A stretch of 64,000 nucleotides of DNA from an uncultured Flavobacteriales bacterium (GCA_943788405.1 CALSQD010000001.1:457200-521199); one strand, 5' to 3'; shown: positions 1-10,586, numbered from the stretch's first letter. Made by a program: numbers and translations. Notes: generated by a model from the letters alone, not told the origin.

Positions 1-498
1 TATAATGACACAACAAATATTAAAGTTTGTGGAGATTTTAATTTAAGTAGAGACACATTGGAGCGAAAGTTATTTGATTTTGCTTTTGAAAATAAAATCC
101 CATTAATTGGAGTGTGCAGAGGAATGCAAATGATGAATGTGGTAAGTGGAGGAACTTTGTATGGTGATATTCCTACAGAAATAGGAACAGAAGTAATCCA
201 TAGGAATAATGGAGAGGTAAATCATGAAATAGTAATGGTGGATACTTGTTCTTTAATTTTTCCTTTAGAAACAGATACAATTATGGTTAACTCTAGGCAC
301 CATCAAGGGTTAAAAATTATGCCCAATCACTTAAGGGTTATTGCTCGTTCTTTTGACGGATTACCTGAGGCAGTAGTAATGAATAATGACCAACATCCTT
401 TTATGATTGCAGTTCAATTTCATCCTGAAAGACTTGGAAAAGAAAACATTATTCACACAACAATGAAAGAGAGTTTCTTTAAAGAAATTGACAAATAA
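1..498 (+). CDS. Class-I glutamine amidotransferase-like / gamma-glutamyl-GABA hydrolase family protein (peptidase C26), 5' end cut by window edge
   Basis: Frame of the 58..498 ORF stays open back to nt 1. It has the nucleophile elbow GVCRGMQ and the C-terminal QFHPE motif. Confidence 0.75.
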   Translation, partial: YNDTTNIKVCGDFNLSRDTLERKLFDFAFENKIPLIGVCRGMQMMNVVSGGTLYGDIPTEIGTEVIHRNNGEVNHEIVMVDTCSLIFPLETDTIMVNSRHHQGLKIMPNHLRVIARSFDGLPEAVVMNNDQHPFMIAVQFHPERLGKENIIHTTMKESFFKEIDK

Positions 499-573
499 AA
501 TAATTGATATTAATTATTTAAAATAGAGGGAATTAGAACAAATCCATTACATTCGCCATCTTAAATTTTAGTA

Positions 574-1017
574 ATGATACAGGACATTTTATTTACTTTC
601 TTAATTAGCTTTTCTCCTTTTGGTGAGGCTAGGGCAGGTATCCCTTATGGAGAGTTAAATGGATTGCCTATTCTGCTCGTTTTTTTTGTAGGACTTGCCG
701 CAAATTTGTTAGTTTTCCCAATATTCTACAAAGCAATTGAACTAGCAAACAAACACCTATGGAAGAATCCTTTATACAAGAAGGCCGCACTTTATTTAGC
801 CTTAAGAGCAAGAACCAAAACAAAAGAAGTGATAAAAAAATATGGGGTTTGGGGCTTAATGGTTTTTGTAATGATTCCACTACCAGTTACAGGTGCTTAT
901 ATTGGAACAATAGCTGCATTTATCTTTGGTATTTCTTATCAAAAATCATTAATAGCAATTAGCACTGGAATAACAATTTCCTCTATTATGGTCGCTTCAT
1001 TCATGCATGTTATCTAA
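574..1017 (+). CDS. Small multidrug-export-like integral membrane protein (COG2426-like)
   Basis: 147 aa with about 4 hydrophobic helices. The N-terminal PFGEARAGIPYG motif is reminiscent of that family. Confidence 0.5.
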   Translation: MIQDILFTFLISFSPFGEARAGIPYGELNGLPILLVFFVGLAANLLVFPIFYKAIELANKHLWKNPLYKKAALYLALRARTKTKEVIKKYGVWGLMVFVMIPLPVTGAYIGTIAAFIFGISYQKSLIAISTGITISSIMVASFMHVI

Positions 1018-1041
1018 GTTTAGCATTGTAAAATAATCCTC

Positions 1042-1049
1042 TATATTTG
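1042..1049 (+). promoter_or_regulatory. Bacteroidota -7 promoter box TAnnTTTG (tatatttg), 5 nt before the gpmI ATG
   Basis: Exact match to the TAnnTTTG consensus. Confidence 0.45.
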
Positions 1050-1054
1050 CATAG

Positions 1055-2572
1055 ATGAAAGGGAAGAAAACAGCACTTATTATTTTAGATGGTTGGGGAC
1101 ATGGCGATAAAACCAAATCGGATGCCATACACCATGCAAATACACCTTTTGTAGATTCACTTTATAGTAAATATCCTAATTGCGAACTCCATACTTTTGG
1201 TGAGTATGTTGGTCTTCCTAAAGGTCAAATGGGTAACTCGGAAGTTGGGCATTTAAACATTGGTGCTGGTAGAATTGTCTATCAGGATTTAGCAAAAATC
1301 AACATTGCTTGTGCAGATGATTCTATTGCTGAAATGGAAAACCTAAAAGCCTCCTTTGCTTACGCAAAAGAAAATAATAAAGCACTTCATTTAATCGGTT
1401 TGGTATCGGATGGAGGAATTCATTCTCATCAAAAGCATTTATATAAATTGTGTAAATTGGCACAAAAACAAGGAATTGAAAATGTATTTGTTCATGCCTT
1501 TACGGATGGTAGAGATTGTGATCCGAAAAGTGGAAAAGGATTTATTCAAGAATTAGAACAGAATTTATTTGGAGCAAAAATTGCTTCCATTTGTGGCAGA
1601 TATTACGCAATGGATAGAGATAAAAGATGGGAAAGAGTACAACTTGCTTATAATCTATTAACAAAAGGGGTAGGAGAATCTTCTCAAAATCTTGTGGAAA
1701 GCATCCAAAATTCTTACGATAATGAAATTACAGATGAGTTTGTAAAACCAATTGTAAGTATAGATGAAAACGGAAATCCTATCGCAACAATAAAAGAAGA
1801 TGATGCAGTAATTTGTTTTAATTTCAGAACTGATAGGTGTAGGGAAATTACAACTGTACTTACGCAAACCAATATGCCAGATTTTGAAATGAATACTTTA
1901 AATCTGCATTATTCCACCATGACAAATTATGATGCATCTTACAAAAATGTAAATGTAATTTACAATAAAGAAAACATCAAAAATACTTTGGGTGAAGTGT
2001 TGGAAAGTAACAACAAAACTCAAATCAGAATTGCTGAAACTGAGAAGTATCCTCATGTTACTTTTTTCTTTTCAGGAGGTAGAGAAGCAGAATTTGTTGG
2101 CGAAAAAAGATTGATGGTAAACTCACCAAAAGTAGCAACTTATGATTTGCAACCGGAAATGAGTGCTCCTGAAGTTACTTCAACTATTGTAACAGAATTA
2201 GAAAAAGGAGAAACAGATTTTATCTGCTTAAACTTTGCAAACCCTGATATGGTTGGACATACTGGCGATTTTTTAGCAATTACAAAAGCAGTAGAAACTG
2301 TAGATAATTGTACCAAAAAAGTAGTGGAAGCAGGATTAAAAAACGACTATGCTTTTATCATTATTGCCGATCATGGAAATGCTGATTTTGCATTGAATCC
2401 TGATGGAACACCTAACACATCACACAGCACAAATATGGTGCCTTGCTTTGCAATAAACACCAATTTTGAAAAAATAGAAAACGGAAAACTAGGAGATATT
2501 GCTCCTACAATTTTATATATAATGGGAGTGGAAACTCCAATAGAAATGACAGGAGAAATCCTAATAAAATAA
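1055..2572 (+). CDS. gpmI: 2,3-bisphosphoglycerate-independent phosphoglycerate mutase
   Basis: 505 aa with the motifs ILDGWG, GNSEVGH, SDGGIHSH and ADHGNA. Confidence 0.95.
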   Translation: MKGKKTALIILDGWGHGDKTKSDAIHHANTPFVDSLYSKYPNCELHTFGEYVGLPKGQMGNSEVGHLNIGAGRIVYQDLAKINIACADDSIAEMENLKASFAYAKENNKALHLIGLVSDGGIHSHQKHLYKLCKLAQKQGIENVFVHAFTDGRDCDPKSGKGFIQELEQNLFGAKIASICGRYYAMDRDKRWERVQLAYNLLTKGVGESSQNLVESIQNSYDNEITDEFVKPIVSIDENGNPIATIKEDDAVICFNFRTDRCREITTVLTQTNMPDFEMNTLNLHYSTMTNYDASYKNVNVIYNKENIKNTLGEVLESNNKTQIRIAETEKYPHVTFFFSGGREAEFVGEKRLMVNSPKVATYDLQPEMSAPEVTSTIVTELEKGETDFICLNFANPDMVGHTGDFLAITKAVETVDNCTKKVVEAGLKNDYAFIIIADHGNADFALNPDGTPNTSHSTNMVPCFAINTNFEKIENGKLGDIAPTILYIMGVETPIEMTGEILIK

Positions 2573-2576
2573 AGAA

Positions 2577-3962
2577 ATGGAACACATTAACAATTACATA
2601 AACGAAAACAAGGACAGGTTCATTAACGAATTGATTGATCTGTTAAAAATACCATCTATCTCAGCCGATCCAGCTTATAGTGAGGATGTTTTAAACTGTG
2701 CAGGTGCAGTAGCAAAAGCAATGGAAAGTGCAGGAGCAGATAATATTGAGATCTGTAAAACGGCAGGTTATCCTATCGTTTATGGAGAAAAAATTATTGA
2801 CGCGAGTTTACCAACTGTTTTGGTTTATGGTCATTATGATGTGCAACCGGCTGACCCTTTAGAATTATGGACAAGCGGACCATTTGAGCCAGTTGTTAAA
2901 AAGACAGAAATTCACCCAGAAGGAGCAATTTTTGCAAGAGGTGCTTGTGATGATAAAGGACAATTTTATATGCATGTAAAGGCATTTGAATTAATGATGA
3001 AAACCGATACTTTACCTTGTAATGTAAAGTTCATGATTGAAGGAGAGGAAGAGGTTGGTTCGGAAAATTTAGGTGTTTTTGTAAAAGCAAATAAGAAAAG
3101 GTTAAAGTGTGACGCCATCTTAATTTCTGATACTGGAATTATTGCAAATGATACGCCATCAATCACAACTGGATTGAAAGGTTTGAGTTATGTTGAGTTA
3201 GAGGTTACTGGCCCTAATCGTGATTTACATTCAGGATTATATGGTGGTGCAGTTGCTAATCCTATCAATATTTTATGTGAGATGATTGCAAAAATGAAAG
3301 ATGAAAATAATCATATTGCAATTCCTAAATTTTATGACAATGTAGTGGAACTTTCAGCAGAAGAAAGAGCTGATATTGCAAGAGCTCCATTTTCTTTAGA
3401 CAAATATAAAGCAGCATTGGATTTATCAGATGTTCATGGTGAAGAAGGATATACTACTATGGAGCGTACTGGAATTCGCCCTACTTTAGATGTAAACGGA
3501 ATTTGGGGTGGATACACTGGTGAAGGAGCAAAAACAGTTATTGCATCCAAAGCATATGCAAAAATATCTATGCGATTGGTTCCTAATCAATCTGATGAGG
3601 AAATCACTACTTTATTCTCAGACTACTTTAAAAGTATTGCACCTAAAAGTGTAAGTGTAAAAGTTAGCCCTCATCATGGTGGGGAACCTTATGTTTCTCC
3701 TACTGATATTCCTGCTTATGTTGCAGCAAGTAAGGCAATGGAAACTACTTATGGCAAAAAACCTGTTCCGGTTAAAAGCGGGGGGTCTATCCCTATTGTT
3801 GCTTTGTTTGAAGCTGAATTAGGTGTTAAGTCTATCTTACTTGGTTTTGGTTTGGATTCGGATGCTATCCACTCTCCAAATGAGCATTATGGAATTTTCA
3901 ACTACTTAAAAGGAATAGAAACCATTCCTCATTTTTTTGCCAATTACGCAAAGGCTCATTAA
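2577..3962 (+). CDS. M20-family dipeptidase / metallohydrolase
   Basis: 461 aa with HYDVQPAD, GACDDKG, EGEEEVGS and a C-terminal HSPNEH motif. Confidence 0.85.
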   Translation: MEHINNYINENKDRFINELIDLLKIPSISADPAYSEDVLNCAGAVAKAMESAGADNIEICKTAGYPIVYGEKIIDASLPTVLVYGHYDVQPADPLELWTSGPFEPVVKKTEIHPEGAIFARGACDDKGQFYMHVKAFELMMKTDTLPCNVKFMIEGEEEVGSENLGVFVKANKKRLKCDAILISDTGIIANDTPSITTGLKGLSYVELEVTGPNRDLHSGLYGGAVANPINILCEMIAKMKDENNHIAIPKFYDNVVELSAEERADIARAPFSLDKYKAALDLSDVHGEEGYTTMERTGIRPTLDVNGIWGGYTGEGAKTVIASKAYAKISMRLVPNQSDEEITTLFSDYFKSIAPKSVSVKVSPHHGGEPYVSPTDIPAYVAASKAMETTYGKKPVPVKSGGSIPIVALFEAELGVKSILLGFGLDSDAIHSPNEHYGIFNYLKGIETIPHFFANYAKAH

Positions 3963-4046
3963 ACTTTTCGGCAATAATTTACTCTAAATTTTGTTATTTG
4001 TAAAAGTTGATGTTTTTATCTACTTTTATGCCTTACAACACATTTC

Positions 4047-4904
4047 ATGAGAAAAGTATTTTTCTTCTTTACTATTATACTAATTGCATCCTGCACAAAA
4101 GTTGAGGATATATTGGTTGATGGAAATATAGTGCCTCCTGATTATACAATTGAAAACACAACAATTGACATCTATATTAACAAGTTGTATATAAGTACAA
4201 TTGGGCGTGAACCAACTGCAAGTGAGTTTGACGCTAATTTTGAAATGCTAAGGGGATCTAATCTGAGTCAGCAAAGTAGAGAGCAAGTAATTGCAGATAT
4301 TTTAAATAAGGAAGATTATAGTAATAATCTATTTAAACTAGAAAGTGCAAATGTCTTAAATGGAGTAGATACTAATATGATAAATGAACGAGTTTATATT
4401 TATCAGTTTTTATTGACTACAGCTAGTGGATTTGATAGCATTTATATTGAGTATGAGTTGGGAAGAATGTTGGAGTTTCAAGATGCCTTACCCGAGTTGA
4501 ATGATGGAGTAATTACAAATACTGAACTGTATAAACGCATGGTGAATAATAATTTCTTTGATGAAATAAATATGGGTACAGAAAATTTTGTTGTGGCTAT
4601 GTTTCAGCACTTTTTATTAAGATACCCTACTGAATCTGAGATAGAAAATTCAAAAATTATGGTGGATGATGGTAACTCAACTGTGTTTTTTGAAACAGGA
4701 AATGGAAAGCTGGATTTTATAAATATCTTTTTTGCCTCTGATGAATATTATACCGGACAAACAAGCATTCTATTTAATCGCTATTTGTTTCGTGACCCTA
4801 CTTCAGAAGAGAGTGTAAATTATAGTTTAGATTACATTAACACAAATGATTATAAAATGCTTCAAAAAAGAATATTATCATCTGATGAATATATTGGCCT
4901 ATGA
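4047..4904 (+). CDS. Lipoprotein with three DUF4214-like repeats (function unknown)
   Basis: Lipobox LIASC. A repeated R-x-P-T-x-x-E core occurs three times (GREPTASE, LRYPTESE, FRDPTSEE), each followed by an [SD]xEY tail. First gene of the coupled operon. Confidence 0.7.
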   Translation: MRKVFFFFTIILIASCTKVEDILVDGNIVPPDYTIENTTIDIYINKLYISTIGREPTASEFDANFEMLRGSNLSQQSREQVIADILNKEDYSNNLFKLESANVLNGVDTNMINERVYIYQFLLTTASGFDSIYIEYELGRMLEFQDALPELNDGVITNTELYKRMVNNNFFDEINMGTENFVVAMFQHFLLRYPTESEIENSKIMVDDGNSTVFFETGNGKLDFINIFFASDEYYTGQTSILFNRYLFRDPTSEESVNYSLDYINTNDYKMLQKRILSSDEYIGL

Positions 4905-5383
4905 AGAAAGTAATTTTTATATTGAGTGTCCTAATTTTGTTTTCTTGTAAAAAAGAAAAGAAGATTTCTTATGCTTTAAATGATGTGAATATTTCCCAAA
5001 ATTCAGCTAATAAAGACCATCTTAAAAGTACAACTGAGTTTATTTCTATTGCTTATTCTGATATTTTTGGAACAGTTATTACTACTGATAAGTTAGCTGA
5101 TTTAAGCACTATGTATAAAGCTTTTGGAGATAAAAAATTGATTGAAGAAATGGTGATTAAGAATTTCTTAAACGAGCCAACTATTCAAATCCCCCAAATT
5201 GATAGAACTTCAGAAATTACTATTCAAAATTTTGTAACTGATTCCTATAAGAAATTATTCAACCGTACACCAGATGAATATGAGCTATGGTTTGTAACTG
5301 ATATGATTCAGAAGGATGCTGATTTAACATCAGAGCTTATTTATCTTTCTTTAATGACGGCTAACGAATACAGATATTACTAA
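4901..5383 (+). CDS. Lipoprotein with DUF4214-like repeat(s) (function unknown)
   Basis: Lipobox ILFSC. Motif FNRTPDEYE followed by ANEYRYY. The start overlaps the upstream stop (ATGA). Confidence 0.7.
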   Translation: MKKVIFILSVLILFSCKKEKKISYALNDVNISQNSANKDHLKSTTEFISIAYSDIFGTVITTDKLADLSTMYKAFGDKKLIEEMVIKNFLNEPTIQIPQIDRTSEITIQNFVTDSYKKLFNRTPDEYELWFVTDMIQKDADLTSELIYLSLMTANEYRYY

Positions 5384-6687
5384 TGGAAAGAAGAAAATTT
5401 ATTAGAAATTTAGGCTTAGGAGCAGCAGCAACTATTGGCGTTCCCTACCTTTTGCCAAGTGGCAGATTATTTGCCTCAACAGGAGTAAGAAAAGCAAATC
5501 ATGTAGTGTTTTGTTTGTTTGCAGGAGGAGTGAGAAATTTAGAATCAGTACATAAAATAGATGGAAATTTAATGCCTTATAGTTTTAAAGGGAATGAAAA
5601 TATTTCATCTGATATTATAAGCGGAATTGATTTAGTGCCTCCAAATACAGGAATAACTTTGCAAGAACAAGGAACCTTGTATAAGGAGTTCCGAATGAAA
5701 TATGGGCCAACAGGACATTATGGAGCGCATGCCACAGCAATGACAGGAGTTTATACTGGAGAGAATTTAAACATAAATACAAATCCTCAATATCCAACTA
5801 TTTTTGAGCTATACCGAAAACATAATTCTCCAGGTATGAGTGCCAAAAATGCTTGGTGGGTTTCTAATTCTTTAGGGCCATATGCACATCTTAATTATTC
5901 ATCTTATGAAGGATATGGAGCGGATTATGGAGCAAATTTCATTCAACCTGGCTCTATTATTTCTCAAGATGGATTTGACAGTTTAGGAAATTCAAGAGTG
6001 TATAACAATACAGAGGAAGATAAAATAAAAGCATTAAGAGGATTTTGTGATGCGCACTTTACCTCTCAATATAATGGAGCTGCTAATAGTATTGTAAATA
6101 CTGAAGCAGACAAAAAAGAGATTGAAAGTTTCATTAATCAATGTTTTACGGATGCAGTTGCTGGGCAGTTTGATGACCCTTGGGGAATAGGACAAGGTTT
6201 GTATAATAATGATATGCGTACTGTACAATTTGCTGAAAAAGTAATTCAGGAATTTAACCCAGAATTATTAGTAGTAAATATGCAAGGGGTGGATGTAGCA
6301 CATGACGATTTTACTGAGTATGCAAGCAATTTACAAAAGGCTGATTATGCTTTAGGGCATTTATGGAATACCATACAGAATACACCAGGAATGGCAGATG
6401 ATACCATATTAATTGCTATGCCAGAACATGGTAGAAATTCTGAAGGAAATGGCTTGTATGATGCTTATGGAAGACAGGCTTTGGATCATACAAATGATGA
6501 AATGAGTAGAGAAATTTTTGCTTTAGTTCTAGGGCCTAATGGGGTGGTGGTTCAGGACCAAGTTTTCTCACAGGAAAAAGGAGAAAGTATAGATATTGTT
6601 CCTACAATTGCAAATATTTTAGGATTTGATGCTGATATTCCTGGCGGTTTACTTAGTGGTAATGTGTTAAACGAAAGTTTTTATTAA
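5383..6687 (+). CDS. Tat-exported alkaline-phosphatase-superfamily protein (DUF1501-like)
   Basis: Twin-arginine leader MERRKFIRNLGLGAAA. AP-superfamily-like motifs CLFAGGVRN, TGHYGAHATAMTG, VDVAHDD and MPEHGRN. TAATG overlap with the upstream gene. Confidence 0.7.
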   Translation: MERRKFIRNLGLGAAATIGVPYLLPSGRLFASTGVRKANHVVFCLFAGGVRNLESVHKIDGNLMPYSFKGNENISSDIISGIDLVPPNTGITLQEQGTLYKEFRMKYGPTGHYGAHATAMTGVYTGENLNINTNPQYPTIFELYRKHNSPGMSAKNAWWVSNSLGPYAHLNYSSYEGYGADYGANFIQPGSIISQDGFDSLGNSRVYNNTEEDKIKALRGFCDAHFTSQYNGAANSIVNTEADKKEIESFINQCFTDAVAGQFDDPWGIGQGLYNNDMRTVQFAEKVIQEFNPELLVVNMQGVDVAHDDFTEYASNLQKADYALGHLWNTIQNTPGMADDTILIAMPEHGRNSEGNGLYDAYGRQALDHTNDEMSREIFALVLGPNGVVVQDQVFSQEKGESIDIVPTIANILGFDADIPGGLLSGNVLNESFY

Positions 6688-6688
6688 G

Positions 6689-7597
6689 ATGAGAAAGTTA
6701 CTTTTTTTAGGGTTTATATTGTCTTTGTGTTTAGTAAATTGTACAGAAGATAATTTGCCGATTAATCCTTATGATGGGGTGGATTATGGCAATACAACTT
6801 TGGTGATTGATACGGTTTCTTCTACCTCTTTTGTAAAATTACACAGAGATGTTTTAGGCCCTTCATGTAATGTTATGGGATGCCATGATGGTTCTTTTGA
6901 GCCTGATTTTAGAACAGTAGAGAGCTCTTATAATACTTTAGTTTATCATGAAATTATCAAAAATAACTTAGCGGAAGATTTTACTTATAGAGTAGTTCCA
7001 GGGGATACTGCTTTATCCGTTTTACATGAGCGATTAACCAATTGTTGTTTTGTAAATACGAATGATAGGATGCCTCAGGATAACATAGGAAATGCTTTAC
7101 CTCAAGAAGATTTAGATGCAGTAACCGCTTGGATTTTAGGTGGGGCAAAAGACATTACAGGAGCAATCTCTAGTGAGCCCAATAATTTACCAAATATAGA
7201 TTTCTTTTTTGTTATGGATTTAATGTATGATTCTACATATTCTGACAATAGAATTGGGGAATGGTATGAGCCGTTTTTAATGCCTGAAAACGAACAAGTG
7301 AATTTTATATTTAGAGTATGGGATGATAAAACTAACCCAGCAGACATGTTAGTTAATGAAGTGATGATTTCTGAATTTCAAGATGATTTTTCTAATGCAA
7401 TTACGGCTACCGCAACTTATTATGACCCTACTTATGATGTGTGGTCAGTTCCTGTTAATACGACTGTTTTGCAAAGCGGTGAAACATATTATGTACGATA
7501 TAAAATTAATGATGGAGAAAATTCAAGCAATACAATTTACCCAAATAATCAAACCTCTTTTATTTTTAAAAGCATGTGGTCCTTTATTGTTCAATAG
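6689..7597 (+). CDS. Lipoprotein with planctomycete-type cytochrome-c-like (PSCyt-like) domain and a C-terminal beta-rich domain
   Basis: Lipobox LVNC. The pattern SCNVMGCHDG ... VVPGDTALSVLHERL ... DRMPQD ... LPQEDLDAVTAWILGGA follows the PSCyt1 layout. Confidence 0.6.
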   Translation: MRKLLFLGFILSLCLVNCTEDNLPINPYDGVDYGNTTLVIDTVSSTSFVKLHRDVLGPSCNVMGCHDGSFEPDFRTVESSYNTLVYHEIIKNNLAEDFTYRVVPGDTALSVLHERLTNCCFVNTNDRMPQDNIGNALPQEDLDAVTAWILGGAKDITGAISSEPNNLPNIDFFFVMDLMYDSTYSDNRIGEWYEPFLMPENEQVNFIFRVWDDKTNPADMLVNEVMISEFQDDFSNAITATATYYDPTYDVWSVPVNTTVLQSGETYYVRYKINDGENSSNTIYPNNQTSFIFKSMWSFIVQ

Positions 7598-8029
7598 ATG
7601 AAAATACTAATTTTTATACTTTTTGCAATTCTGCTTTTTTCCTGTAAAAAAGAGGATGCAGTTTCTGATATTCCTCAAATTGAATTTCTAAGTATTTCTC
7701 CTACTACAGCACAAGAATATATTGATGATATTATAGTTAAAATATCATATGCTGATGCAAATGGGGATTTGGGAGAAAATAATCCTGATATATTTAATCT
7801 ATTTATTACCGATAAAAGAAATGAAATAGAGTATAAGTTTCGTATTCCTGAACTTACTCCAAATGGCAGTGATATTGCAATAGAAGGTAATTTTAATATT
7901 ACGATAAATGGTACAGGAATTACGAGTGAATCATCTAGCCAAAAAGTTGCTTATTCTATTTATGTAAAAGATAGAGCTGGAAATAAGAGTAATATCATTA
8001 CTACTTCTGAGATTACAATCCAAGAATAA
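7598..8029 (+). CDS. Small lipoprotein (function unknown)
   Basis: Lipobox LLFSC. 143 aa, beta-rich. The start codon directly abuts the upstream stop. Confidence 0.65.
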
Positions 8030-8031
8030 AA

Positions 8032-10134
8032 ATGAAATTTTTTAATTTAGTGAGTATTTGTTTATTGCTCACAATGAGTTTTAATAGTCAACACAAAGAA
8101 ATAAAAACTGTGGAAAATCATCATCAATATACCAATGCTTTAGTTAATGAAACAAGTCCTTACCTTTTGCAACACGCACATAATCCTGTGGACTGGTATC
8201 CTTGGAACGAGCAAACTTTGGATAAAGCAAAAGCGGAAGGGAAGTTATTACTGATTAGTATTGGTTATTCTGCTTGCCATTGGTGTCATGTAATGGAACA
8301 CGAAAGTTTTGAGGATGCTGAGGTGGCAAAGATTATGAATGATAATTTCATTTGCATTAAGGTAGATAGAGAAGAAAGACCAGATATAGATCAAATTTAT
8401 ATGACGGCAGTTCAACTGATGAATCAAAGAGGAGGTTGGCCATTGAATTGTGTAGCATTGCCTGAAGGTAAGCCGTTTTGGGGAGGAACTTATTTCAGAA
8501 AAGAGGATTGGAAAAAACAAATTTTAGGTTTAGCAAATACTTATAAAACGGAGCCTAATCGAGTAAAAGAATTTGCCGATAGACTTGCAAAAGGAATACA
8601 AGAAGTAGAAAATATTGGTTTGAATACTGAAGCAGTGAACTTCACTTGGAAGGATTTACATAATATGGTTAGTCCTTGGGCTGAACGATTTGATAATATG
8701 GAAGGAGGGAGCAATGGAGCTCCAAAATTTCCTATGCCAAATGCCTACCATTTTTTATTAAAGTACGCTCATCTTTCTAAAAATAAAGAGGTGCTAAATC
8801 ATGTTGAACTCACTTTGGGTAAAATGGCTTTTGGTGGTATTTATGATCAAATAGGGGGTGGTTTTTCTCGTTATTCAGTGGATAAATTATGGAAAGCTCC
8901 CCATTTTGAAAAAATGCTGTATGATAATGGACAACTCGTAAGTTTATATTCGGATGCTTATTTAAAATTTAAAAAGCCTTTATATAAAGAGGTTGTTTTT
9001 GAAACACTAGACTTTATTGATCGTGAATTAATGGCAGAAAATGGAGCCTTTTATTCTGCTTTGGATGCCGATAGTGAAGGGGAGGAAGGAAAGTTTTATG
9101 TATGGAATGAAACGGAATTGAAATTATTTATCCGTGAGGATTATGATATTTTTAAGGACTATTACAATGTAAATTCTGTTGGGCTTTGGGAACATGGAAA
9201 TTATATTTTACTGAAAAAGAAAACCAAAGCACAAATTGCTAAAAAGCATAAAGTTTCAGTTGCTGATTTGGAAAATAAAATTGAAAATTGGAAAGCAATT
9301 TTAATGAAAGAAAGAGATAAACGCATTCGCCCAGGATTGGATGATAAATCCTTAACCTCTTGGAATGGTTTAATGCTAAAAGGATATGTGGATGCTTATA
9401 TGGCTTTTGGGAAAAAGGAACATTTGGAAGTGGCTTTAAAGAATGCAAATTTCTTAGCCAATACACAAATACAATCAGATGGAAGATTATGGCACTCCTA
9501 TAAAGATGGACGCTCCACTATCAATGCTTATTTGGAGGATTATGCCATTGTAAGTTCGGCATTTATTCGTCTATATGAAGCCACTTTTGATGAGGTTTGG
9601 TTAAGTAGAGCTAATCAATTAGTGGCTTATGCTTTGGATAATTTTTATGATAAAAACTCTGGGATGTTTTATTTTACTTCCAAGTTAGATCCTGAATTGG
9701 TTGCTAGAAAAATGGAGATTAATGACAATGTTATTCCTGCTTCTAATTCAGTAATGGCAAATGTATTGTACGATTTAGGAACACTTTTGGATAATAGGAT
9801 TTACAAGCAAAAAGCAGTTATTATGGCAAATAATGTAAAGCCTGATATGCAACAATACGCTTCAGGATATGCAAATTATGCTACCCTTATGTTAAAAGAA
9901 ATTGTTCCTTTTCATGAAGTGGCCATTGTGGGGAAAGATGCCCATGCAAAGGCTATGGAATTGAATAAAAAATATATCCCTAATAAATTGTTATTAGGGA
10001 GTGTAAAGGAAAATGAGTTGGAATTATTGCAAGAAAAATATGTTCAAGGCAGTACAATTATTTATGTTTGCGAAAACAAGGCTTGCCAATTGCCAACTAG
10101 TAATATAATGAAGGCTCAAAAATTAATGAATTAA
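8032..10134 (+). CDS. Secreted thioredoxin-domain protein, DUF255/YyaL family (thioredoxin fold plus alpha/alpha-6 barrel)
   Basis: 700 aa with an N-terminal signal peptide. Contains [26 protein letters not shown] and a long GlcNAc-2-epimerase-like C-terminal region. Confidence 0.85.
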
Positions 10135-10586
10135 TGAACTATATATTTGAAGAAAATCAGAAGTTTACCCAGTGGTGGTTGTGGGTAATTTTATTGTCGT
10201 TTCCAATTATGGCCTTTGGGCCTTTTGATGAAAATGAAGTTAATATTGAGTATGTATTGATAGGGCTAGCATTACCATTATTATTCTACCTATTTGAGTT
10301 AAGAATTAAAGTAAGCAATGATGGTTTGCATTATCAATTTTTCCCATTTCATTTCAAATCATATACGATAAAGCATGAGGAAATTGAAAAAGCTAAAGCC
10401 ATGGAATACTCCCCTCTAAAAGAATATGGAGGTTGGGGAATAAAGTACGGATTTAAAGGAAAGGCCTATAATGTAAGCGGTAATAAAGGCGTGAAGATTT
10501 TCCTGAGAAATGGAACAAACATTATGTTTGGAAGCCAAAAACACAAAGAGTTGGCAAAGGCTTTGAAAAATGCTAAGCAACAATAA
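10134..10586 (+). CDS. Hypothetical membrane protein
   Basis: 150 aa with two N-terminal hydrophobic helices. TAATG overlap with the upstream gene. The 3' end overlaps tyrS by 14 nt. Confidence 0.55.

Follow-up and report, generated by a model that had tools for sequence, protein, structure and literature searches.

A run of seven closely spaced genes in an uncultured Flavobacteriales bacterium, all encoding proteins with export or membrane signals and without a recognized function, raises the question of which of them belong together and what they might do in the cell envelope. The genes lie within a 64,000-nucleotide stretch of DNA (GCA_943788405.1 CALSQD010000001.1:457200-521199), hereafter the window, and a first-pass annotation made from the sequence alone had read them as one translationally coupled operon for a single multi-protein machine. 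The seven open reading frames (ORFs), all on the plus strand, are found exactly at the coordinates that it gave: g1 at 4047-4904, g2 at 4901-5383, g3 at 5383-6687, g4 at 6689-7597, g5 at 7598-8029, g6 at 8032-10134 and g7 at 10134-10586. Their junctions are as tight as had been claimed, with overlaps of 4 nt (g1/g2) and 1 nt (g2/g3 and g6/g7) and gaps of 1, 0 and 2 nt (g3/g4, g4/g5 and g5/g6, respectively). The proposed export signals are likewise visible in the translations, which show lipobox-type N termini for g1, g2, g4 and g5, a twin-arginine (RR) leader, MERRKFIRNLG, characteristic of the twin-arginine translocation (Tat) pathway for g3, a hydrophobic leader for g6 and two hydrophobic segments for g7.

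The conserved unit is five genes, g1-g5, spanning positions 4047-8029. We scanned an alignment of g3 against one genome per GTDB species, which revealed relatives in 481 species, and analyzed the best 80 loci (coded L001 onward), in which the window proteins were located by tblastn. These 80 loci derive throughout from metagenome-assembled genomes (MAGs) of Bacteroidota, among them Flavobacteriales, Chitinophagales, Sphingobacteriales and Cyclobacteriaceae. g3 is present in all 80, g4 in 79, g2 in 77, g1 in 75 and g5 in 74, with most of the missing genes corresponding to contig ends. Gene order and strand are constant across loci, and the median gaps at the g1/g2, g2/g3, g3/g4 and g4/g5 junctions are -1, 9, 1 and 0 nt. 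Orthologues from several orders keep the lipoboxes as well as the RR leader, and the lipobox Cys of g1, g2, g4 and g5, read directly from the sequences, is invariant in the orthologue alignments. For comparison, g6 lies inside the fetched 10-kb flank in 15 of the 61 loci that have enough downstream sequence, and is adjacent to the cassette in 10, whereas g7 was found in 8 of the 80 loci and is confined to a few close relatives. The window genome and loci L001, L002, L004 and L005 have the seven genes in one unbroken run, with junctions of mostly a few nucleotides. In L007, g1-g6 are contiguous and g7 was not found, and in L006, g7 stands directly 3' of g5 without g6. The clustering of g1-g5 is therefore far beyond chance and that of g6 and g7 is not, such that gene-neighborhood conservation across Bacteroidota supports the proposed unit for its first five members only. 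g6 and g7 are later, lineage-specific additions to the cassette.

The 700-residue g6 product is an exported DUF255/YyaL protein with a thioredoxin fold and an alpha/alpha barrel, as the first-pass annotation had recognized. It scores 219.7 bits against DUF255/Thioredox_DsbH (PF03190), and residues 34-596 align with PDB entry 7tkv (1.7e-112), a solved but functionally uncharacterized structure. Of eight DUF255 copies adjacent to the cassette, seven have a signal peptide or a lipobox (the exception is L004), whereas seven of eight copies located 0.5-5 kb from the cassette have no export signal (the exception is L032). Because export signals are tied to the adjacent copies, it appears that an exported DUF255 variant was recruited in one sub-lineage only, that of the Flavobacteriales-type loci. 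In the window copy of g6, a Phe takes the place of the lipobox Cys (…LLTMSFNSQ…). The 150-residue g7 product has two N-terminal hydrophobic segments and receives no family assignment from Pfam or NCBIfam.

The cassette appears to be previously undescribed and widely conserved in Bacteroidota. It occurs in hundreds of aquatic species of this phylum, both marine and freshwater, usually as one copy per genome. Two contigs of one MAG (CAYQRR01; loci L008 and L033) each carry a cassette copy, which points to a duplication, a rare event, or to a mixed bin. The core proteins are all unnamed or 'hypothetical' in public sources, an NCBIfam scan of the window proteins returned no meaningful names, and literature searches on DUF1501, DUF4214, DUF255, DUF1800, PSCyt and LVIVD yielded no description of the cassette. 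These results agree with the earlier impression that the architecture was not one already on record.

The third gene encodes a 434-residue, Tat-exported protein that has no lipobox and is the presumed catalytic metalloprotein of the cassette. Its likeness to the alkaline phosphatase (AlkP) superfamily, noted at first pass, is borne out by a marginal match to Phosphodiest (PF01663; 25.1 bits, gathering score 23) and by an AlphaFold2 model with a predicted local distance difference test (pLDDT) value of 82 and a predicted template modeling (TM) score of 0.84. Foldseek matches of this model are to sulfatases, PafA, NPP and LtaS, with E values down to 9e-12 and TM-scores of only 0.4-0.48 at 10-15% identity. 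By its modeled fold and its profile match, g3 is placed in the AlkP superfamily. Its orthologues weakly match Phosphodiest, Metalloenzyme and Sulfatase, and neither its sequence nor its profile gives a useful match in the PDB. Searched against 1.84 billion representatives, the g3 profile recruits 879 at E<=1e-3 and 72 at E<=1e-30. With only 879 recruits, the g3 family is small and stays separate from the large family of DUF1501 proteins. The resemblance of g3 to DUF1501 suggested by the first-pass annotation holds solely through distant relatives, two of which narrowly exceed the DUF1501 threshold of 27 bits (P0409 with 28.0 and P0418 with 28.6); other distant relatives match Metalloenzyme, Phosphodiest or Sulfatase. 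Among 38 g3 orthologues, six match DUF1501 weakly, the best at 0.034. The genomic context is of the DUF1501 type, in that the RR leader is conserved and g1, g2 and g4 are neighbors of g3 in 75-79 of the 80 loci.

An alignment of g3 with 26 distant relatives reveals a set of shared motifs comprising the RR leader, GG-x-R, H112, PT[IV]FE-x-[YL]RK, D304-x-A-H307, P-E348-[HF]-G-R and L-D368-H369. Strand 1 (residues 40-49) ends in A47-G48-G49-x-R51 and has no Asp, as judged from sequence and secondary-structure register, and by the same register the invariant His112 starts the following helix, at the nucleophile position of characterized members. The distal metal-site positions look retained, and the His/Asp/Glu cluster at the expected AlkP metal sites is kept even in relatives with E values of about 1e-40. 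Type I sulfatases, NPP, PafA, LtaS and iPGM share with g3 the core alpha/beta fold and the distal metal-ligand positions D-x-x-H, [DE]-H and H, but they possess a first Asp and a Ser, Thr or formylglycine where g3, apparently and by register, has GG-x-R and His112. Directly after the hydrophobic region of the Tat leader lies the segment P-Y-[IL]-L-P-S-G-R-L-F-A (g3 residues 21-31; window 5443-5475), which is near-invariant across orders and kept in some distant relatives, unusual behavior for a cleaved signal peptide. It might act as an anchor that is retained, bind a chaperone or dock a partner protein.

The two lipoproteins that precede g3 are related to each other. g1 (285 residues) has three helical repeats that resemble DUF4214 and phycobilisome linkers, and g2 (160 residues) has one DUF4214-like motif. 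Both carry the R-x-P-[TD]-x-x-E core reported at first pass, as GREPTASE, LRYPTESE and FRDPTSEE in g1 and as NRTPDEYE in g2. Pfam gathering scores are 23.2 bits for DUF4214 (PF13946), 28.7 for PBS_linker (PF00427), 28.5 for PSD1 and 29.8 for PSCyt2. The DUF4214 resemblance proposed for these proteins is borne out in part, the window copies falling below threshold at 16.4 bits (g1) and 19.5 bits (g2). Of 34 g1 orthologues, 33 match DUF4214, the best at 2.8e-8, and several are above threshold (34.1, 33.6 and 29.8 bits); 18 of 35 g2 orthologues match weakly. The phycobilisome linker domain is matched by 12 of the 34 g1 orthologues, with 18.9 bits for the window copy and 31.9 bits, above threshold, for that of L009, and the g1 profile retrieves the phycobilisome linker ApcH and LR linkers from the PDB at 5e-5 to 5e-3. 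Phycobilisome linkers are structural proteins that act as protein-protein scaffolds. The profile hidden Markov models (HMMs) of g1 and g2 cross-match (hhalign E of 9e-5), the shared part being the motif region. On these sequence relationships, g1 and g2 are predicted to be helical, scaffold-type lipoproteins. Sixteen of the 34 g1 orthologues also match PSD1/DUF1553 (PF07587) weakly, the best at 0.0026 and below threshold; because only a short common motif is covered, these matches were not counted by themselves as a sign of domain homology. No g1 or g2 orthologue matches DUF1800 at E<=1.

The fourth gene encodes a 302-residue lipoprotein with a four-helix N-terminal domain, a candidate mono-heme c-type domain, followed by a C-terminal immunoglobulin (Ig)-like beta-sandwich. 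Seventy-five orthologues share, with strict spacing, the motif C-x4-C-H-[DV]-G-x-F-E-P-D-[FY]-R, which continues with RV-x-P-x-D-x-x-x-S-x-L, a usual Cys-Cys pair, an invariant M-P and W-I-x-x-G-A. Residues C60, C65, H66, M128 and P129 are invariant in an alignment of 130 sequences. The two domains are seen in an AlphaFold2 model with a pLDDT of 86.5, whose confidence is low exactly at residues 62-67, in the CX4CH loop. The elements of the N-terminal domain come in the order helix 48-56, CX4CH, helix 77-82, helix 111-117, Met and helix 139-150, which we interpret as the layout of a class I cytochrome c. Foldseek of the model returns Ig-like domains only, and g4 has no Pfam or PDB sequence match. 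The PSCyt-like domain that the first-pass annotation had seen in this protein received no support from profile searches, in which g4 and 31 orthologues match neither PSCyt1 nor another cytochrome family. None of these 32 sequences matches PSCyt1 (PF07635) at E<=1, their motif being CX4CH and not CXXCH, and scans of the isolated N-terminal domain against PSCyt1 reach merely 0.052 for one paralogue and 0.29 for one orthologue.

Two further features of g4 and its surroundings can be noted. The vicinal Cys-Cys pair at residues 119-120 (window 7043-7048) lies within T-N-C-C-F-V-N and is present in most orthologues, while one sub-branch has a shorter loop in its place and keeps the Met-Pro; candidate roles for the pair are a disulfide, a metal site or a persulfide carrier. 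In three Chitinophagales MAGs, a stand-alone lipoprotein of about 127 residues that shares the C-x-x-x-G-C-H-D motif of g4 and has a C-K-P-M-P segment is encoded divergently just upstream of the cassette (L028:7880-8260, L049:8007-8522 and L059:7999-8460, all on the minus strand), and it matches PSCyt1 weakly, at 0.052.

The last core gene, g5, encodes a 143-residue lipoprotein in which the motif D-x-x-G-D-L-G-E-N is conserved. It gives weak matches to Ig-like or DUF5126 families only and no match in the PDB. A proposal that g5 is a paralogue of the C-terminal domain of g4 was dropped when hhalign gave no relationship between them. Apart from the marginal Phosphodiest match of g3, the proteins g3, g4 and g5 represent families without a curated family or a solved structure.

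Distant relatives of g3 outside Bacteroidota provide the link between this cassette and better-known gene modules. A metagenome scan with an alignment of P0418, P0426 and P0409 identified 13 high-GC loci, within L084-L096. In nine of them (L084, L087, L088, L090, L091, L092, L094, L095 and L096, metagenome contigs of 60-70% GC) the AlkP-like gene, which encodes a borderline-DUF1501 Tat protein, is followed directly by one for a protein of ~1000 residues with 8-11 CxxCH motifs, or 10-11 in full-length copies. In L090 and L094, both genes fall inside one uninterrupted ORF call, with the boundary between them not resolved. The seven unambiguous multi-CxxCH proteins carry Pfam Cytochrome_C7, c3 and, in part, MtrC/MtrF-like domains, and LVIVD repeats are present in the six multi-CxxCH proteins that are uncut by a contig end. 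Directly upstream of the AlkP-like gene of L092 lies a gene (5126-6967) for a 614-residue fusion protein that combines a signal peptide, one CxxCH, a PKD/Ig domain, a g1-like part (2e-10) and nearly the whole g2 HMM (2.5e-13). A partner protein of the same type occupies this position in L088 and L086, which makes at least three loci with such a protein ahead of the AlkP-like one. The protein at L088:1859-2878 passes the thresholds of both DUF4214 (32.7 bits) and PSCyt2/DUF1549 (PF07583; 30.1 against 29.8 bits) and matches PSD1 weakly.

These partners indicate that g1/g2-like and g3-like proteins are associated well outside Bacteroidota, and the union of cytochrome, Ig-like and g1/g2-like parts in the L092 fusion constitutes evidence of the Rosetta-stone type for joint action. 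P0409 and P0418 on one side and the L092 and L088 intermediates on the other link the two halves of the cassette to the families of DUF1501 and PSCyt/PSD proteins. The AlkP-like protein of the high-GC clusters is the outgroup closest to g3 and shares its motifs, and the upstream partner matches the g1 and g2 profiles. The clusters differ from the cassette in having one fused partner and then a protein of ~1000 residues with 10-11 CxxCH motifs, for which the cassette has no counterpart. A literature search on LVIVD and multiheme proteins gave no description of such an AlkP-like/decaheme cluster.

Modules that pair DUF1501 with PSCyt/PSD proteins are said to have been first noted around 2004, by Studholme. 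In the Planctomycetes-Verrucomicrobia-Chlamydiae (PVC) group, which for these modules means Planctomycetes, Verrucomicrobia and Lentisphaerae, DUF1501 proteins, often with a twin-arginine signal, are encoded beside PSCyt1/Big_2/PSCyt2/PSD1 proteins (Kamneva 2012, PMC3542564). The authors of that study suggested membrane targeting and electron transport, while stating that the function is unknown (PMC3542564), and a like conclusion was reached for Verrucomicrobia modules (He 2017, PMC5615132). The window proteins themselves fall below the thresholds of DUF1501, PSCyt1, PSCyt2 and PSD1. The first-pass annotation had related its seven genes to the PSCyt/DUF1501 pairs of Planctomycetes and taken all seven to function together; kinship and joint function are supported, on stronger grounds than the first pass had, but the set comprises five genes and not seven. 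Like the PVC modules, the cassette places a Tat-exported AlkP-clan protein beside exported domains of three kinds, Cys/His heme-type, Ig-like and helical with L-G-R-x-P-x-x-E. In contrast to the large multidomain PSCyt/PSD protein of PVC bacteria, the cassette has four separate small lipoproteins, its heme-type motif is CX4CH, and it belongs to another phylum. The PVC modules are also heavily amplified, whereas the cassette is mostly found as one copy per genome, among housekeeping genes.

Gene order and tight coupling, the export signals, the fold of g3, the conservation of motifs and the bridging homologies are observed; heme attachment to g4, formation of a complex, its periplasmic location and redox chemistry are inferences. 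We propose, with a probability of roughly one half, that the cassette encodes a membrane-anchored periplasmic complex of metalloprotein, cytochrome and scaffold, and that it is a remote, split counterpart of the PVC modules of Tat-exported DUF1501 and PSCyt/PSD proteins. In such a complex, g3 would fold in the cytoplasm, where its metal would probably be loaded, and would then be exported by the Tat system without a lipid anchor of its own, to be tethered at the membrane by a scaffold of g1 and g2. g3 would be the catalytic subunit, its site formed by the His/Asp/Glu cluster of H112, D304, H307, E348, D368 and H369. g4 would contribute a mono-heme c-type domain (CX4CH, Met128 being the distal ligand) for electron exchange with g3 or with the substrate of g3. 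The Ig-like domain of g4, together with g5, might serve in docking or substrate binding, with g5 acting as an accessory binding protein. Redox coupling is suggested because cytochrome partners recur in the PVC literature, in the decaheme clade and in g4, and because the site of g3 is non-canonical.

Several observations weigh against this proposal. In g3 there is no match to DUF1501 (PF07394) at E<=1 (threshold 27 bits), and the apparent loss of the first metal-binding Asp and of the nucleophile (Ser, Thr or Cys) of canonical members is a reading of sequence and secondary-structure register. The PSD1 matches of g1 are limited to profile positions ~215-243, about 25 residues that amount to the short L-G-R-x-P-T-x-x-E motif. 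Profile and fold searches never identify the N-terminal domain of g4 as a cytochrome, its comparison with the CxxCH region of the L092 fusion is not significant (hhalign E of 0.11), and CX4CH is unusual as a heme motif, one that Bacteroidota may or may not be able to mature. The decaheme partner is absent from the Bacteroidota cassette, such that redox coupling may not carry over from the distant clusters.

A bolder form of the proposal is tentative and, on balance, doubtful. It holds that the DUF1501-like branch of the AlkP superfamily, including g3, consists of non-hydrolytic, redox-linked metalloenzymes that exchange electrons with dedicated c-type cytochromes, and the Bacteroidota cassette would be the minimal form of such a system. 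On this idea, the cytochrome partners would be PSCyt proteins in PVC bacteria, the decaheme-LVIVD proteins in the other clade and the CX4CH protein g4 in Bacteroidota. We know of no characterized AlkP-superfamily enzyme that works with a cytochrome.

The occurrence of g3 relatives repeatedly beside c-type cytochromes, together with the apparent loss of canonical residues, leads away from a plain hydrolase. Hydrolytic scavenging of nutrients, in which g3 would be a phosphatase, phosphodiesterase or sulfatase freeing phosphate or sulfate from organic esters while the lipoproteins bind substrate and the CX4CH of g4 binds metal or forms disulfides, is accordingly unlikely. It would explain why the fold is that of AlkP, with sulfatases, PafA and NPP as the best structural matches and with weak orthologue matches to Phosphodiest, Metalloenzyme and Sulfatase, and it would suit a cassette that is widespread in marine and freshwater Bacteroidota. 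Tat export is, moreover, common among metal-dependent phosphatases. However, the similarity to true hydrolases is low (TM-scores of only 0.4-0.48 at 10-15% identity), GG-x-R appears to replace the Asp after strand 1 and His112 the Ser/Thr/Cys, and no SusC/D, transporter, regulator or Pho-type gene adjoins the cassette in any of the 80 loci. The same apparent lack of catalytic residues could instead mean that g3 is a pseudo-enzyme in a non-catalytic envelope structure, such as a tether, a chaperone platform or a receptor, whose AlkP fold and Cys/His motif are structural or binding modules. The resemblance of g1 and g2 to structural phycobilisome linkers, the housekeeping neighbors and the small host genome (about 2 Mb) would fit this idea. 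Nonetheless, we consider it improbable, since the His/Asp/Glu cluster occupies the AlkP metal positions even in relatives at E of about 1e-40, the two Cys, the His and the Met of g4 are invariant, and Tat export suggests that a cofactor or metal is loaded before export.

It is also hard to sustain the machine of the first-pass annotation, in which the DUF255 protein g6 and the two-segment membrane protein g7 would be integral subunits together with g1-g5. The contiguity of all seven genes in five genomes (and of g1-g6 in L007), and the export signals gained by the DUF255 copies next to the cassette, suggest functional recruitment in this lineage. Conversely, g6 is not found in the 10-kb flank of 46 of 61 loci, g7 was located in just 8 of 80, g5 of L006 is followed immediately by g7 without g6, and all but one of the DUF255 copies of other lineages, which lie at a distance of 0.5-5 kb, have no signal peptide. 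We therefore assign little probability to a seven-part complex.

Two other systems invite comparison with the proposed complex. DUF1800-DUF1501 gene pairs are widespread, DUF1800 being the other common partner of DUF1501. They resemble the cassette in combining a helical partner with a Tat-exported AlkP-like protein, and in that DUF1800 and g1 are both phycobilisome-linker-like. They differ in having no cytochrome-like member, and the g1 and g2 orthologues give no DUF1800 match. The likeness of DUF1800 proteins has been described for the linker ApcE (PMC12981691). The Sox system offers a mechanistic analogy only. Thiosulfate oxidation by Sox proteins unites, in one periplasmic pathway, the Tat-exported SoxB, which is a phosphatase-superfamily hydrolase, the c-type cytochromes SoxAX and the small Ig-fold proteins SoxYZ. 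Much as proposed for the cassette, a Tat protein of a hydrolase superfamily is combined with a cytochrome and small Ig-fold parts. There is, however, no sequence or fold relationship, and the cassette has no C-terminal Cys arm of the SoxY type.

The cassette is probably expressed from its own promoter. The Bacteroidetes promoter consensus consists of -33 and -7 elements, and the assignment made here is based on it. In the 84-nt gap between the upstream M20 dipeptidase gene and g1, a TTTG at 3997-4000 is separated by 20 nt from TACTTTTA at 4021-4028, which ends 19 nt before the ATG of g1, and the whole element (3997-4028, plus strand) is plausibly the -33/-7 promoter of g1-g5. Both TTTG and TACTTTTA are kept in the corresponding gap of seven relatives; one of these is L007, in which the coding sequences have diverged much further than this element. 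An exact TAnnTTTG was not found in this gap, a sigma-70 promoter scan performed no better than on shuffled sequence, a terminator scan was uninformative and gave no convincing internal terminator, and Rfam had no match in window positions 1-14000. Indirect support for a possible single transcript comes from genes that overlap or abut, from their conserved close spacing, from the promoter-like element ahead of g1 and from the lack of a convincing terminator inside the run.

The genes that surround the cassette are housekeeping genes. The M20 dipeptidase gene (2577-3962, plus strand) encodes a CNDP2/Dug1-like protein without a signal peptide, which matches PDB entry 4ruh at 7e-67 and Dug1 (4g1p) at 5e-58. 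It is preceded by an iPGM gene (1055-2572), also on the cassette strand, and tyrS lies downstream of the cassette on the opposite strand, in convergent orientation. The GC content of the window is uniform, at about 30-35%, and there is thus no sign of a foreign island. An exact Bacteroidetes-type -7 box, TATATTTG, occupies 1042-1049, and its end precedes the start codon of iPGM (1055) by 6 nt, which implies a leader that is very short or absent. We clustered the neighboring genes of the 80 loci to find recurrent ones. In 23 of the 56 loci with enough flank, from several orders, the M20 dipeptidase gene immediately precedes the cassette in the same orientation. This adjacency is unusually persistent for a gene with no obvious tie to an exported complex, and the link is left uncertain, given the cytoplasmic nature of the dipeptidase and the lack of a mechanism that would tie it to g1-g5. 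A lipoprotein with a LEA_2 domain (27.9 bits), exemplified by the 168-residue protein at L064:12749-13255, is encoded directly 3' of g5, in the same orientation, in 11 loci, and may be another lineage-specific add-on. The other recurrent neighbors are a handful of genes found in 4-9 related loci each, none of which hints at a function. Farther downstream in the window, at 13333-13677 on the plus strand, a predicted 114-residue lipoprotein with a Cys-rich core, CCAPKAAACCCGDATCDGSCHGD, and C-terminal HGDHDHAGDDHDHAGDDHDH repeats has no Pfam match and looks like a metal-binding periplasmic protein.

DUF1501 and PSCyt/PSD proteins are among the most amplified families of unknown function in Planctomycetes and Verrucomicrobia, where their multiplicity hampers genetics. 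The compact and usually single-copy cassette of Bacteroidota is tied to these modules by bridging homologues and one fusion protein, and it brings to attention three protein families, those of g3, g4 and g5, that had been covered neither by curated libraries nor by solved structures. If the link is true, the cassette would supply a minimal parts list for biochemical reconstitution and a tractable entry to the unexplained DUF1501/PSCyt modules. It would also offer a testable hint that this branch of the AlkP fold works with cytochromes, for which, to our knowledge, the superfamily holds no precedent.

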